This document shows positions 45,972 to 50,918 of a stretch of DNA of 64,000 nucleotides, in pieces. Source of the stretch: Escherichia phage PHB12; sequence record MK524178.1. One strand, written 5' to 3'. The notes beneath the pieces were generated by a model. The model ran no database searches, was not told the origin of the DNA, and saw only the letters and a program-made list of their open reading frames with translations. How positions within the stretch are numbered: the first letter of the stretch is position 1; every line of letters starts with the position of its first letter. Both the position numbers and the translations under genes were made by a program.

Positions 45972-46010
45972 AGTATTCTCCAGAGGCCTTAAATTAATAA
46001 GGCCATCATA

Positions 46011-46696: not shown

Positions 46697-47356
46697 TTAA
46701 CCTCGATTCATAAATGCATTAAATATTTGGTCATCAACAGAAATTTCTAATTCGACTTCAATTGTTTCAGCCTTTTCTTCAGGTGGTAATTCGTATCCAC
46801 ACACTACAATTTTTTCATCGATATCAAAATATACAGAAGCAATACGATTAATGTTATTTTCGGTTAAGTCTAAATCAACATCAACGTCTTTTTGACCTAC
46901 ACTTAAAGGATAACTAATACGGGTTATTTTATTATCTTTAACAAAGAGTCCACCGACATACTCTGTACTACGTTTGAAGTTTACACGTTTCCGAAATGAA
47001 AGATATGATGCATCTTTACCGTGAGCTCGGCTCATAGGACATAATGAATAGCTAGAATAAGAGATGTCAAATCCTACACCTTCAATATGAGCCAACGCGT
47101 CATGATTAAACCAATTATAATCATATGCCAAATCCATTATATTGTAATATGTGAAAGGCACCGGATTAACATCGTACGTTGTACCTTTAAAATCTGCCCA
47201 GGCAACGATTTCGTTATCTTTAACAATTACAAAAATTACACCAATATGGTATCCGTTATTATTTTCATTCGGCGTTATATTATAACATTGTGCATTAGGA
47301 AATTTACCATATTTAAACGGCGCATTTTTGTGCATATAATAAATCATATTATTCAC
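46697..47356 (-). CDS. Hypothetical protein (61.2 position)
   Basis: 219 aa ORF. Confidence 0.45.
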   Translation of the reverse strand: MNNMIYYMHKNAPFKYGKFPNAQCYNITPNENNNGYHIGVIFVIVKDNEIVAWADFKGTTYDVNPVPFTYYNIMDLAYDYNWFNHDALAHIEGVGFDISYSSYSLCPMSRAHGKDASYLSFRKRVNFKRSTEYVGGLFVKDNKITRISYPLSVGQKDVDVDLDLTENNINRIASVYFDIDEKIVVCGYELPPEEKAETIEVELEISVDDQIFNAFMNRG

Positions 47357-47705: not shown

Positions 47706-47954
47706 TTATTCTTTTTCGCGAATAATAATTACTTGTTGAGGCTGCTGAGCAGATTTCTTTTCGGCAACGATAGACCAAATTAAAGTTCCAATCCAACCAA
47801 TCATCGTCCAGTTAAAGAGTAAAGATACAAAGAAGATTGCTGTTGTGCTTTTTGTGCCACGAATAAGTGCGATTACCCAAGGCAACATGTAAATGATGAT
47901 TGAACCAATACCTGCGATTAAAACTGCTACTGAACTAGCTACGAATAATTCCAT
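47706..47954 (-). CDS. Small inner-membrane protein (2 predicted TM helices)
   Basis: 82 aa; two long hydrophobic segments; T4 61.4 position. Confidence 0.5.
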   Translation of the reverse strand: MELFVASSVAVLIAGIGSIIIYMLPWVIALIRGTKSTTAIFFVSLLFNWTMIGWIGTLIWSIVAEKKSAQQPQQVIIIREKE

Positions 47955-48015: not shown

Positions 48016-48384
48016 TTAATTAAATTTGTTTAAACGTTCAATACACTGGACGTAGTTATTCGCAATTTGTTTCTGGGTAGGCTCTTTACCAGTTGTTTCA
48101 ACATGGCGAATGAATGCGATTTCAGTAGCCTGTAGACAATGTTCTTTAACGCGTTGTTCTTTTGACAATGCTACAGTATCAGAATCACGATAACGTTGAG
48201 CATGAGCATCAGCTTGAATCATTCGATTGCCTACAGTAACCGGGTCTTCCACTTCAACTTTAGGTTGGTCGTACTGTTTAACATTCGGATTGTAAATCAG
48301 TTGGCCAACGTTATTAGGGATAAAGCCATGGGCACCACATCCAGTTAATCCAAATATCATTGTTAAAGCGATTAATTTTTTCAT
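48016..48384 (-). CDS. Putative lipoprotein
   Basis: 122 aa; signal peptide with lipobox LTGC (MKKLIALTMIFGLTGCGAHG). Confidence 0.55.
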   Translation of the reverse strand: MKKLIALTMIFGLTGCGAHGFIPNNVGQLIYNPNVKQYDQPKVEVEDPVTVGNRMIQADAHAQRYRDSDTVALSKEQRVKEHCLQATEIAFIRHVETTGKEPTQKQIANNYVQCIERLNKFN

Positions 48385-48454: not shown

Positions 48455-48643
48455 TTATCGAAAATCTGCTTCGAAAACTTTCTCGTCATTAACAAATGCT
48501 TTAACTAATGCGTTGTTCACTTCAGCAAGTTGTACCGCAACCCACTCGATTTCTTCGCGATCACCTGATAACATGATATCTTTAGTGAACATCTCACCGC
48601 TTTTAAACCAACCAATAAAAGTAACTTTAGTTAATTTGCTCAT
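48455..48643 (-). CDS. Small protein, possibly Dmd-like
   Basis: 62 aa from ATG 48643 (MSKLTKVTFIGWFKSGEMFTKDI...); ATGA coupled to upstream ORF; size and region fit T4 dmd, identity from memory only. Confidence 0.35.
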   Translation of the reverse strand: MSKLTKVTFIGWFKSGEMFTKDIMLSGDREEIEWVAVQLAEVNNALVKAFVNDEKVFEADFR

Positions 48644-48957
48644 ATTTCCTCGCAAAATGCCCATTCAGCGTGATAAACTGTGGCGCCTTTAGTATTATTC
48701 ATTTGAACTACGTCTACCGGAGAAATTACTCGATAGAGACGTGGTTCACCTCCATAAGAGCGTGCTGCTCGTCCTGCATAAATCTTTGCTAAACCGATAT
48801 CTTCAGTAAAGAATACACGATCCAAGTTTTTCTTACGTCCAGTTTCAGACAGAACTCCTGTTTCCTCAGGAGGACAAAGCATGTTTTCGATGTTAGCTGA
48901 ACTACTTGAACCGTGATAAAAAATCTTAAATTCTGCTTTACAATCGATGGTTTTCAT
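48640..48957 (-). CDS. Hypothetical protein with HGS motif
   Basis: 105 aa; FYHGSSSS...AKIYAGRAA...YHAE. Confidence 0.45.
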   Translation of the reverse strand: MKTIDCKAEFKIFYHGSSSSANIENMLCPPEETGVLSETGRKKNLDRVFFTEDIGLAKIYAGRAARSYGGEPRLYRVISPVDVVQMNNTKGATVYHAEWAFCEEI

Positions 48958-48983
48958 TTTGTTCTCCAGTAGTTGATAGGTCT

Positions 48984-49012
48984 ATAATAACACAACTACT
49001 GGAGAAGTAAAC
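48984..49012 (-). promoter_or_regulatory. Early promoter
   Basis: Minus-strand GTTTAC, 17 bp, TATTAT upstream of ORF 48640-48957. Confidence 0.6.
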
Positions 49013-49387
49013 TTAAAAATGTAATTTAGATATATCTGCGTTGATTTCGTTTTGGTTTGCGTCATATGCAATTAAACGAACCGCTTTAGATGGGTCATTC
49101 AATGCATAGAAATGATGGAACATTGCTCGAACGATATCACCATTTACGAGTTTTACCTGGATAGGAGAACCTTTTTCGAGTTGGAAATGTTCATAAGCTT
49201 TGATGGTTCGCAGATAATCAAGTTTTTGATTTCCGGCTCCAACAATTTGTACGATACGTTTGCCCATGTTTTCCATACGAGATACAATAGTTTTAGGAGC
49301 AAGAATAACATAGGTTGCCAGCGGAGAATCTACTTCAACAGTTGTGTTTTCGGTGATTGCAGTAAAAATTGCTTGAGACATATTCAT
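49013..49387 (-). CDS. Hypothetical protein
   Basis: 124 aa ORF with SD AGAGGAAAA; between gene 41 and the 61.x cluster. Confidence 0.45.
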   Translation of the reverse strand: MNMSQAIFTAITENTTVEVDSPLATYVILAPKTIVSRMENMGKRIVQIVGAGNQKLDYLRTIKAYEHFQLEKGSPIQVKLVNGDIVRAMFHHFYALNDPSKAVRLIAYDANQNEINADISKLHF

Positions 49388-49475: not shown

Positions 49476-50918
49476 TTAAAATTTTAACTCATTGGCTAAG
49501 CTATCTAGGTCAGCACGTGTTGTTTTGGCTTTACCTACGCGTTCCGTACGATTCACCTCTGCCTGACGCATCTGAGCACCTGCGTTTTCATTTACTGTGT
49601 TAGGTGTGTTCATGCCTTCTTGCTCAATCTCAATCCATTTCTGGTTGCCTTTACGTACACCCATCAGGAATTTATTCCACTTATTCTTATCACCATATCG
49701 TGATTTGATTTGTTTGATAAGTTGTTGTTCAGCTTGTGCAAGTTCTTCGGTTTCAATTACGGCCAACATGAAATCTGCCGTTGCTGGTAAACCTGCTGAT
49801 TCTGCAATATCGCGCATGTTCATATCCGAAGCATCCCATGCTGCACGTCCTACTTGAGCTGCAGTCCATAGAACTGTTTCAGATTCTACTGCTAATGCAC
49901 GAAGTTCTTCTGCGATAGCTTTAACTAATGTGTAGCTATTTTCAGTGTAAACTCTGATACGACAAGACCCACAAATACCTAAGTAATCAACCATGATTAC
50001 AGATGGCACAAAGTTCTTCTTAAGTTTTAACTCATTAAGCAATGCACGGAATGTATTAGCATTAGCTCCGCCAGTAGGATACTGTTTAACTACTAAACGT
50101 CCTAATGTGGATTTTGAACGCCATTTTTCCATCTTGGCTTTATATTCAGCATAAGATACGTTACCATCATCAATATCATCAAGTGATACGTCAAGCATGT
50201 TTGCATCTATACGCTTAGCGCAAACTTCTTCAGCCATTTCCATGGAAATATAAAGAACATTATGACCTGTTTGAAGATAATCTGCAGCAAGTGAACAAAG
50301 GCCTAAAGATTTACCAACGTTAACACCGGCCATTAAAACATTCAGTGTACCGGTTTCAGCACCACCTTTAGTGATTTTATTCAGAATGTTTAATTTGAAC
50401 GGGACCTTACGTGCTTTGTTCAGATAAGAAAGCCAGCGTGCTTCATAGTCTTCCATCCAGTCATGCCCAACATAACTATCAAACGAAATTGAAAGTGCTT
50501 GACGCATAATATCAGGAATAGCTCCTACGTCAGGCATTTTCTTGTTACGTTGTTCTGGAGGTAGTTCAGCATTAGATTGAATCTCAATGATTTTAGATGT
50601 AGCATTATACATCGCTTTTTGCTGGACATATTTCTCAGTTTCTTTAACCAACCATTCGTGGTCTTCAGGAGTATCAGCCAATTTTTCAATTAGGTCTGAA
50701 GTTCCTTTATATTCGGCTTCAGTTAAAGAACTGTTATCTAAAGCCACCTTTAACGCATTGATAGATGGCATTGCATTATATTCGTTAACGTGGCTCTTTA
50801 TAATTTTAAAGACGTTTTTTGCCGGTCCACGCTCAAAATACTCAGAATCCATATAAGGCCAGACCTTAGAAAAATAAGCCTGGTCATATACTAGATGAGA
50901 CAAAATAATTTCTACCAC
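49476..50918 (-). CDS. 41: Replicative DNA helicase gp41 (DnaB-like)
   Basis: 480 aa; Walker A AGVNVGKS; T4 gp41-like N-terminus MVEIILSHLVYDQAYFSKVWPYMDSEYF. Confidence 0.95.
   Translation of the reverse strand: MVEIILSHLVYDQAYFSKVWPYMDSEYFERGPAKNVFKIIKSHVNEYNAMPSINALKVALDNSSLTEAEYKGTSDLIEKLADTPEDHEWLVKETEKYVQQKAMYNATSKIIEIQSNAELPPEQRNKKMPDVGAIPDIMRQALSISFDSYVGHDWMEDYEARWLSYLNKARKVPFKLNILNKITKGGAETGTLNVLMAGVNVGKSLGLCSLAADYLQTGHNVLYISMEMAEEVCAKRIDANMLDVSLDDIDDGNVSYAEYKAKMEKWRSKSTLGRLVVKQYPTGGANANTFRALLNELKLKKNFVPSVIMVDYLGICGSCRIRVYTENSYTLVKAIAEELRALAVESETVLWTAAQVGRAAWDASDMNMRDIAESAGLPATADFMLAVIETEELAQAEQQLIKQIKSRYGDKNKWNKFLMGVRKGNQKWIEIEQEGMNTPNTVNENAGAQMRQAEVNRTERVGKAKTTRADLDSLANELKF

Follow-up and report, generated by a model that had tools for sequence, protein, structure and literature searches.

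What does a protein of 105 amino acids (aa), encoded immediately upstream of a dmd gene in a T-even phage, contribute to infection? We addressed this question for a 64,000-nucleotide stretch of DNA from Escherichia phage PHB12 (sequence record MK524178.1), here called the window, in which the listing of open reading frames (ORFs) gives an ATG-started frame at 48640..48957 on the minus strand: MKTIDCKAEFKIFYHGSSSSANIENMLCPPEETGVLSETGRKKNLDRVFFTEDIGLAKIYAGRAARSYGGEPRLYRVISPVDVVQMNNTKGATVYHAEWAFCEEI. An initial annotation, made from the sequence, had tentatively proposed a minimal NAD-utilising ADP-ribosyltransferase or Tpt1-like fold for its product. The ORF is a genuine gene and not a chance frame, because its product matches the unnamed PHROGs family phrog_2110 end to end (E 6.9e-60), because tblastn finds homologues in 609 phage records, and because it is annotated as a coding sequence in Escherichia phage SF. 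As judged from sequence profiles and a structure model, the protein very probably has an ADP-ribosyltransferase fold. With modest confidence, we favour the reading that it is an active, minimal, Arr-related mono-ADP-ribosyltransferase, made early and modifying a target conserved across Gammaproteobacteria, and that it acts as an effector of host takeover or counter-defence. Between positions 46000 and 51000 the window is 98.4-98.6% identical to Escherichia phages LNA2, TU01, SF and ST0; SF is classified in Straboviridae, Tevenvirinae, Mosigvirus, and the window likewise belongs to a Mosigvirus, an RB69-like T-even phage.

The fold is indicated both by structure prediction and by sequence profiles. 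An AlphaFold2 model built on 38 homologues has a mean pLDDT of 84 and a pTM of 0.76, with pLDDT below 50 only in the loop at residues 38-42, and displays the split beta-sheet of the ADP-ribosyltransferase fold. When the model was compared with the PDB by Foldseek, Arr was the sole credible match (probability 1.00, TM 0.62). A viral structure library returned two orthologues and, next, a phage protein of 94 aa that carries the label Rifampin ADP-ribosyl transferase (37% identity, E 2.5e-8). The fold comparison also listed a cyanophage ejectosome protein, diphtheria toxin, PARPs, DarT, RES/ParT and pertussis-like toxins, among others, and AcrIF11 is named there. The proposal of a transferase-type fold is thus borne out by the model, by Foldseek and by the profile search described next; an unrelated fold, which the initial annotation had given as the outcome that would speak against it, was not seen.

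A profile of close homologues (A1) matched no PDB sequence. A profile of 52 diverse members (A2), searched against the whole PDB, found Arr only (2HW2 and 9IAF at E 5e-4, ARR-2 at 0.027), and its alignment with Arr runs from the YHGT motif through the end of strand 3. Comparison with ARR-2 by hhalign gave a probability of 94.5% over residues 7-84, using an ARR-2 sequence whose first 89 residues agree with the PDB alignment. Nearly half of the A2 members (23 of 52) match the Pfam family Arr-ms at E <= 0.01, the best at 1.3e-10, and no other ADP-ribosyltransferase family was matched. Three relatives (P0146, P0132 and P0128, with 29.4, 27.5 and 26.9 bits) exceed the Arr-ms gathering threshold of 25 bits. 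Although the window protein itself lies below this threshold, transitive homology makes it, on sequence grounds, a divergent member of an Arr-related family.

That the gene encodes an ADP-ribosyltransferase is not a new proposal, since a published description fits this gene pair: Iyer et al. 2022 (PMC9503650) predicted a 'p0068-like' ADP-ribosyltransferase family of the H-Y-[EDQ] clade, encoded immediately upstream of Dmd in Escherichia, Shigella and Salmonella phages, a position that the pair in the window matches exactly. Judged from gene context only, the 105-aa protein most probably belongs to this family and clade. Several GenBank records also name orthologues 'putative ADP-ribosyl transferase'. 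What we add is the explicit link to Arr, a corrected map of conserved residues, the polyvalent architectures of relatives, the arrangement of promoter and hairpin, and a phyletic argument concerning the proposed toxin-antitoxin pairing.

Arr (Pfam PF12120, Arr-ms; PDB 2HW2 and 9IAF, and 9IBA for ARR-2) is likewise a minimal single-domain ADP-ribosyltransferase. It has in common with the 105-aa protein the YHG[TS] motif, an E-x-G-R loop, an aromatic residue on strand 2, another in the next helix, and a 'V-E-P-x-G' strand 3. It differs in carrying Tyr rather than Phe on strand 2, in its D84, which lacks a conserved counterpart, and in about 40 additional C-terminal residues. As Arr is both the closest solved structure and the only PDB relative detectable by sequence, and as many relatives match Arr-ms, the phage protein might be a true Arr orthologue that modifies rifamycins or a similar antibiotic and so protects the infected host. 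We consider this highly improbable. The window protein has no Arr-ms match even at E <= 1, the alignment stops near residue 84, about 20 residues before the protein ends, and, at about 40 residues shorter than the 143-aa Arr, the protein is missing the C-terminal part that completes the rifamycin site in Arr. Moreover, a lytic phage would gain little from resistance during an infection of some 30 minutes, and Iyer et al. (2022) keep the rifampin and p0068-like families separate. The gene is an early gene of a lytic phage and not a resistance gene, and its substrate is almost certainly not rifamycin.

Residues of the predicted NAD pocket are conserved far beyond the T-even phages. Conservation was assessed across the family in 103 representatives, each standing for one cluster at 50% identity, and in a close set of 38 homologues; the codons of the principal motifs are given in Table 1. 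H15 and G16 occur in all 103 representatives, are invariant in the close set, and pair with H19-G20 of Arr. Position 49, aligned with Y49 of Arr, is Phe in 100 representatives and Tyr in the other three. In the helix that follows, A57 and Y60 are each kept in 102 of the 103 and A61 in 101, Y60 being aligned with W59 of Arr. The distance from F49 to Y60 is 11 residues, as between Y54 and Y65 of diphtheria toxin and between Y896 and Y907 of PARP1, so that Y65 and Y907 are the counterparts of Y60. On the strength of the Arr alignment and of this equal spacing, we assign F49 as the canonical strand-2 aromatic and Y60 as the second, nicotinamide-stacking aromatic. The mobile loop between the first two strands' motifs is also well conserved (E38 in 100, R41 in 99, K43 in 87 and N44 in 85 of the 103), has the pattern E-x-G-R-x-x-N in common with Arr (E40, G42, R43, N46), and contains in E38 the sole universal carboxylate of the family. 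Further conserved positions are T51 (100/103), G69 (101/103), G70 (99/103) and G91 (98/103). From these alignments the NAD pocket looks intact.

This map alters part of what the initial annotation had read from the strings FYHGSSSS (residues 13-20), AKIYAGRAA (57-65) and YHAE (95-98), all of which are present. Of the H-Y-E arrangement suggested there, the histidine stands, as H15 is the invariant His of strand 1. The tyrosine does not: Y60 is ruled out as the canonical strand-2 Tyr by the Arr alignment, which places F49 at that position. Nor does the glutamate, for E98 varies among E, A, D, S, K and Q in close homologues and among P, D, S and E across the family, which rules it out as the catalytic Glu. 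E103 is invariant in the T4-like clade and is absent elsewhere. Relative to the catalytic residues of Arr, which we take to be H19-Y49-D84, the His is kept, the Tyr has become Phe, and D84 lies outside the alignable region, where register alone would place it at N87 or N88, both of them variable. As the catalytic acid does not map to a conserved C-terminal residue, we rate the catalytic competence of the 105-aa protein as no more than probable.

Homologues are widespread among phages. Those in the 609 records show 34-100% amino-acid identity to the window protein, with at least 99% in 130 records and 60-80% in 340. By phage host, 215 records are from Escherichia phages, 116 from Klebsiella, 68 from Acinetobacter, 62 from Aeromonas, 29 from Enterobacter and 14 from Vibrio. 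Versions from Escherichia, Klebsiella, Acinetobacter and Aeromonas phages are 60-70% identical to one another, which is unusual for a small accessory early gene and therefore implies a highly conserved target. An exhaustive search of 1.84 billion cluster representatives with a hidden Markov model (HMM) returned 229 at E <= 1e-3, many of them stand-alone proteins of about 95-150 aa and many others embedding the domain in proteins of 250 to 3924 aa.

Cellular genomes yielded far less. A scan of 185,579 species genomes with a single peptide pattern (profile A3), which has limited sensitivity, found four loci only; one is a 148-aa gene beside a transposase in a Kaiserbacteria genome (candidate phyla radiation), and another is evidently a T4-like phage contig within a bacterial assembly. 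Because a single pattern was used, the scarcity of the family in cellular genomes is only suggestive. In Flagellimonas marina, a marine member of the Flavobacteriia, a 178-kb contig (NZ_JBHSCL010000010.1) encodes a 105-aa transferase (L012, 3965-4282) nearly identical to those of Klebsiella and Enterobacter Slopekvirus phages. The genes flanking it also resemble Slopekvirus, and the contig, which matches a T4-like genome in size, is probably phage contamination of the assembly.

The longer relatives have the architecture of polyvalent proteins, multi-effector polypeptides that are carried in virions or moved with DNA and are active at the start of invasion (Iyer et al. 2017, PMC5512222). Pfam scans of relatives that embed the domain in proteins of 870 to 3924 aa revealed Phage_portal_2 with a 2H/Acb1-like domain, PhageMin_Tail, ART-PolyVal, NUDIX, GNAT and Toprim. 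Thus a lambda-type portal is joined with a 2H/Acb1-like phosphoesterase in P0167 (954 aa), and a tape-measure-like PhageMin_Tail occurs in P0142 (3924 aa). ART-PolyVal is found in P0135 and P0133, and together with NUDIX in P0161 (1955 aa); GNAT and Toprim occur in P0178, and DUF7178 in P0153 and P0137. The one extended gene neighbourhood recovered for a relative is phage-like and includes genes for endonuclease VII and for a ribonucleotide reductase that contains an intein; contigs encoding small stand-alone relatives were mostly too short to be informative. Embedding in giant virion proteins points to a host-directed effector, of which the window protein would be the stand-alone version. Together with the few loci found in the species genomes, these architectures lead us to regard the family, from sequence, as essentially phage-borne and acting as an effector module, with a free-standing early gene in T4-like phages.

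The conserved loop and the fused domains also bear on whether the enzyme is directed at nucleic acids, in the manner of Tpt1 or DarT, ADP-ribosylating RNA or DNA at 2'-phosphates, 5'-phosphate ends or bases, possibly to shield phage transcripts or to inactivate RNAs of the host or of its defences. The basic stretch G-R-K-K-N and R63 are candidate phosphate binders; one relative is fused to a 2H phosphoesterase and another to NUDIX, enzymes that act on ADP-ribose cyclic phosphate and ADP-ribose. In the window the gene shares an operon with Dmd, an mRNA-stability factor, and in Slopekvirus it is found near RNA ligase 2; Iyer et al. (2022) likewise speculate on RNA substrates. However, in polyvalent proteins the 2H and NUDIX domains may act as effectors in their own right (an Acb1-like role, for example). 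The RNA 2'-phosphotransferase Tpt1/KptA does have an NAD-binding lobe and an HGT-type strand-1 motif in common with the 105-aa protein, but it consists of two lobes (about 180 aa), the N-terminal one binding RNA and supplying part of an Arg-His-Arg-Arg tetrad. The phage protein is a single lobe lacking that RNA-binding part, and it matches no Pfam family, the Tpt1 family PTS_2-RNA included. We regard a nucleic-acid-directed enzyme of this kind as rather unlikely. Slightly less so, though still with a low probability, the family might be not a protein-modifying toxin but an Arr/Tpt1-style enzyme that ADP-ribosylates a hydroxyl or phosphate on a molecule other than protein, for instance the ends of RNA or DNA, which would be capped or blocked, or a nucleotide-derived immune signal. 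The E38/R41/K43/N44 loop would in that event serve acceptor recognition, and the family would be an early counter-defence enzyme acting on a new substrate class and widespread, being conserved from coliphages to phages of Acinetobacter, Aeromonas and Vibrio and delivered in virions by yet other phages. As a side observation, fusions that unite the transferase domain with 2H and with NUDIX are reminiscent of RNA repair, in which Tpt1, cyclic phosphodiesterase and ADP-ribose processing form a chain.

Directly upstream of the transferase gene, we identified a promoter-like site of the T4 early type, the -10 element of which is enclosed by a predicted hairpin. The promoter scan placed TTTACT-16-TATTAT with a TG extension at 49011..48984 on the minus strand, and similar sites precede the 124-aa ORF upstream and the DUF5481 gene downstream. 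The hairpin folds at -21.5 kcal/mol (z -4.6), and none of 200 shuffled sequences folds as well. Phage SF has exactly the same hairpin, a Klebsiella Kanagawavirus has a weaker analogue, and Aeromonas and Acinetobacter phages have a promoter-like GTTTAC/TATAAT pair ahead of the transferase gene. In transcripts reading through from upstream, the hairpin would mask the ribosome-binding site, whereas transcripts from the proximal promoter would be without the 5' arm and thus open to translation. Similar layouts of hairpin and promoter are known in T4 for genes e, soc and I-TevI. A terminator-like stem-loop within the ORF (48855-48872, minus strand; 6-bp stem and weak T tract) is probably non-functional, and we dismissed it as a chance occurrence since one such site was found where 0.6 were expected.

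Several observations weigh against an active, early-expressed enzyme. After residue 82, in the C-terminal strands that normally carry the catalytic residue of ADP-ribosyltransferases (Glu, Asp or Gln on strand 5), no acidic residue is conserved among the 103 representatives; position 87 is Asn in 59 of them, and position 93 varies among Thr, Glu and Ser. Activity could therefore be weak, substrate-assisted or absent. In addition, the protein has no match in Pfam (E <= 1), NCBIfam or PADLOC, its likeness to Arr ends at about residue 84, the promoter is predicted only from consensus and the hairpin only from folding energy, and we found no experimental work on this family in the literature. The lack of a family-conserved acidic residue on the C-terminal strands, together with the very small size of the protein, would suit an ADP-ribosyltransferase fold with little or no catalysis that works through binding, as a sponge or decoy for NAD+, for ADP-ribose-derived signals (such as the Thoeris signal gcADPR) or for a host protein, and phages are known to use sponges against NAD-derived signals. 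Against such a binder, H-G, F/Y49, Y60, E38 and R41 are nearly absolute across a family that has diverged below 40% identity, a pattern typical of enzymes; Arr works with an Asp and a minimal scaffold; and the domain sits among enzymatic effector domains in polyvalent proteins. We judge a pure binding function unlikely and continue to favour an active transferase.

The gene lies in a compact series of minus-strand genes in the order gene 41 helicase, 124-aa ORF, 105-aa transferase gene, dmd, DUF5481 lipoprotein-like gene, Imm-like gene, spackle and AdfA, with the primase further downstream (Table 1). The equivalent interval of T4 runs from gene 41 directly to dmd, so the 105-aa gene is without a T4 counterpart. 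The neighbour that had been called Dmd-like is dmd itself, and the small early-gene cluster of host takeover and counter-defence that the initial annotation had envisaged is recognisable, since Dmd, the Imm-like protein, Spackle and AdfA are all conflict genes and early-type promoters are predicted.

Table 1. Features of the transferase locus, in window positions
Feature	Position	Strand	Basis
Gene 41 helicase	49476-50918	-	
124-aa ORF between gene 41 and transferase gene	49013-49387	-	phrog_10668 (unknown function), E 3.1e-84
T4-early-type sigma-70 promoter-like site, GTTTAC-spacer-TGnTATTAT, directly upstream of transferase gene	48984..49012	-	consensus match
14-bp perfect hairpin; -10 element in loop, Shine-Dalgarno GGAG (48964-48967) in 3' arm	48962..49006	-	
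105-aa minimal Arr-like, probably 'p0068-like', ADP-ribosyltransferase-fold gene	48640..48957	-	
Codons of Y14-H15-G16-S17, strand-1 'YHG[ST]' NAD-pocket motif	48907..48918	-	conservation and Arr alignment
Codons of S37-E38-T-G40-R41-K-K43-N44, conserved basic loop, flexible in model	48826..48849	-	conservation; pLDDT < 50 at 38-42
Codons of V48-F49-F50-T51, strand 2; F49 at canonical 'Y' position of H-Y-[EDQ] transferases	48805..48816	-	
Codons of A57-K-I-Y60-A61-G-R63-A64, helix after strand 2	48766..48789	-	
dmd (discriminator of mRNA degradation, RnlA/LsoA inhibitor), probably 62 aa	48455..48643	-	Pfam Dmd E 2.7e-19; phrog_2102 E 3.5e-32
AdfA (anti-DarT factor A), full-length	46697-47356	-	Pfam PF23813 E 1.4e-120

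The dmd start codon (ATG, 48643-48641) overlaps the TGA stop of the transferase gene as ATGA (48640-48643), and the same 4-nucleotide overlap is annotated in SF. Mechanical ORF calling gives dmd 69 aa (48455-48664, minus strand, with an ATG at 48664), but the real protein is probably the 62-aa form, because Pfam and PHROG matches begin at residues 8-11 and because the start annotated in SF overlaps the transferase stop. By prediction, the ATGA overlap shows co-translation of the transferase and dmd in Mosigvirus.

Such an arrangement invites the interpretation of Iyer et al. (2022) that the transferase is a toxin and the downstream Dmd its cognate antitoxin, forming a phage type II toxin-antitoxin system in which Dmd would neutralise a phage enzyme besides the host toxins RnlA and LsoA. 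The tight linkage agrees with this, as the stop/start overlap implies translational coupling, although tight packing of unrelated early genes is the norm in the hyperplastic interval between genes 41 and 61. The pairing recurs in a second clade, where phage UP19 has an 88.6%-identical transferase (154850-155164) adjoining Dmd (155169-155360), and the same authors report a Mod-like transferase beside Dmd in some Klebsiella phages. However, the phyletic data disagree with the interpretation. Dmd occurs in 798 records, almost all of Escherichia, Shigella, Yersinia or Salmonella-type phages, with genera beyond the top ten contributing at most two records each, whereas the transferase is present in at least about 300 records from Klebsiella, Acinetobacter, Aeromonas, Enterobacter, Cronobacter and Vibrio phages. 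Conversely, at least about 380 Escherichia phage records, T4 included, have Dmd without the transferase, so that each gene is found without the other.

Dmd does not come after the transferase in Slopekvirus, Tulanevirus, Lazarusvirus, Kanagawavirus and one Vibrio phage. The downstream genes of these five lineages are mutually unrelated. Their products are membrane-like (58 aa), Cys-rich (46 aa) or soluble (81 aa), a fourth is a 30-aa ORF, and in the remaining case no gene follows on that strand. Packing of a small ORF right behind the transferase in other lineages could reflect swapping of antitoxins. On the other side, relatives within polyvalent virion proteins show no antitoxin logic, and an addiction module makes little sense in a strictly lytic phage. 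The independent distribution of transferase and Dmd leaves the toxin-antitoxin interpretation poorly supported, and we consider it unlikely. In Dmd-less phages, small ORFs follow the transferase at a spacing or overlap of 0-4 nucleotides (L002 2815-2991, L015 2816-2956, L003 2844-3089 and L009 372-554), encoding 58-aa membrane-like, 46-aa Cys-rich, 81-aa soluble and 61-aa Cys-rich proteins, respectively; they may reflect dense packing or be lineage-specific partners.

Other genes of the cluster were noted as well. The 124-aa ORF has no match in Pfam, NCBIfam or PADLOC; a separate early-type promoter-like site (49445-49417) precedes it, and T4 lacks it in the corresponding interval. An Imm-like superinfection-immunity gene (Pfam Imm_superinfect, E 1.5e-15) lies between a 61.4-like DUF5481 lipoprotein gene and spackle (47706-47954 and 48016-48384, minus strand), at a position where T4 has no gene. 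AdfA is encoded 1.3 kb downstream of the transferase gene. As AdfA counters a host DNA ADP-ribosyltransferase, one early cluster holds both a counter-measure against such an enzyme and a phage-encoded ADP-ribosyltransferase.

Phage ADP-ribosyltransferases with related functions are known. AcrIF11 of Pseudomonas phages, also a small (about 130 aa), phage-encoded, stand-alone transferase, is a counter-defence enzyme and provides a precedent for a miniature transferase effector. It has no detectable sequence relation to the 105-aa protein and comes from phages of other hosts. Moreover, AcrIF11 acts on Cas8f of type I-F CRISPR, a target that is not universal, while phages of many genera have kept the 105-aa family. 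T4 Alt, ModA and ModB are T-even ADP-ribosyltransferases that serve host takeover; they belong to the R-S-E clade and comprise 200 to 680 aa, whereas the 105-aa protein is of the H type, Arr-like and without a T4 homologue. In phage SF, a Mod-type RNA polymerase ADP-ribosylase gene is located several kb from dmd. ART-PolyVal (PF18760) is also an effector module of giant phage proteins, sometimes in the same polypeptide as the Arr-related domain (P0161, P0133 and P0135). It is nevertheless a separate family (H-Y-D, N4-like), and the window protein does not match its HMM.

Under the reading we favour, the 105-aa protein would consist of an ADP-ribosyltransferase core of about 95 residues and little else, and would act as a stand-alone NAD+-dependent mono-ADP-ribosyltransferase. 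We infer its catalytic activity, the role of its loop, the timing of its expression and its function as an effector as follows. NAD+ would be held by H15-G16 on strand 1, F49 on strand 2, and Y60 with A57 in the next helix. The mobile basic loop S37-E38-x-G40-R41-K-K43-N44 probably serves as a lid over the dinucleotide or the acceptor and may supply the carboxylate of E38, to which T4-like phages would add the invariant E103 on the last strand. The protein would be made early from its own T4-early-type promoter, while the hairpin would keep read-through transcripts from upstream untranslated. Transfer of ADP-ribose to a molecule conserved throughout Gammaproteobacteria would then lead to host takeover or counter-defence, and other phages would deliver the same domain ready-made in polyvalent proteins packaged in the virion.

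If active, this protein would add to Alt, ModA and ModB a fourth, evolutionarily distinct ADP-ribosyltransferase, carried by T4-like phages that infect many hosts. It escaped 50 years of T4 genetics because T4 itself lacks it, and a 2026 early-protein toxicity screen of Mosigvirus AV110 missed it because that screen tested only genes with a T4 homologue. An active form would also be among the smallest known ADP-ribosyltransferase scaffolds, and identification of its target could expose a new step in host takeover or counter-defence.

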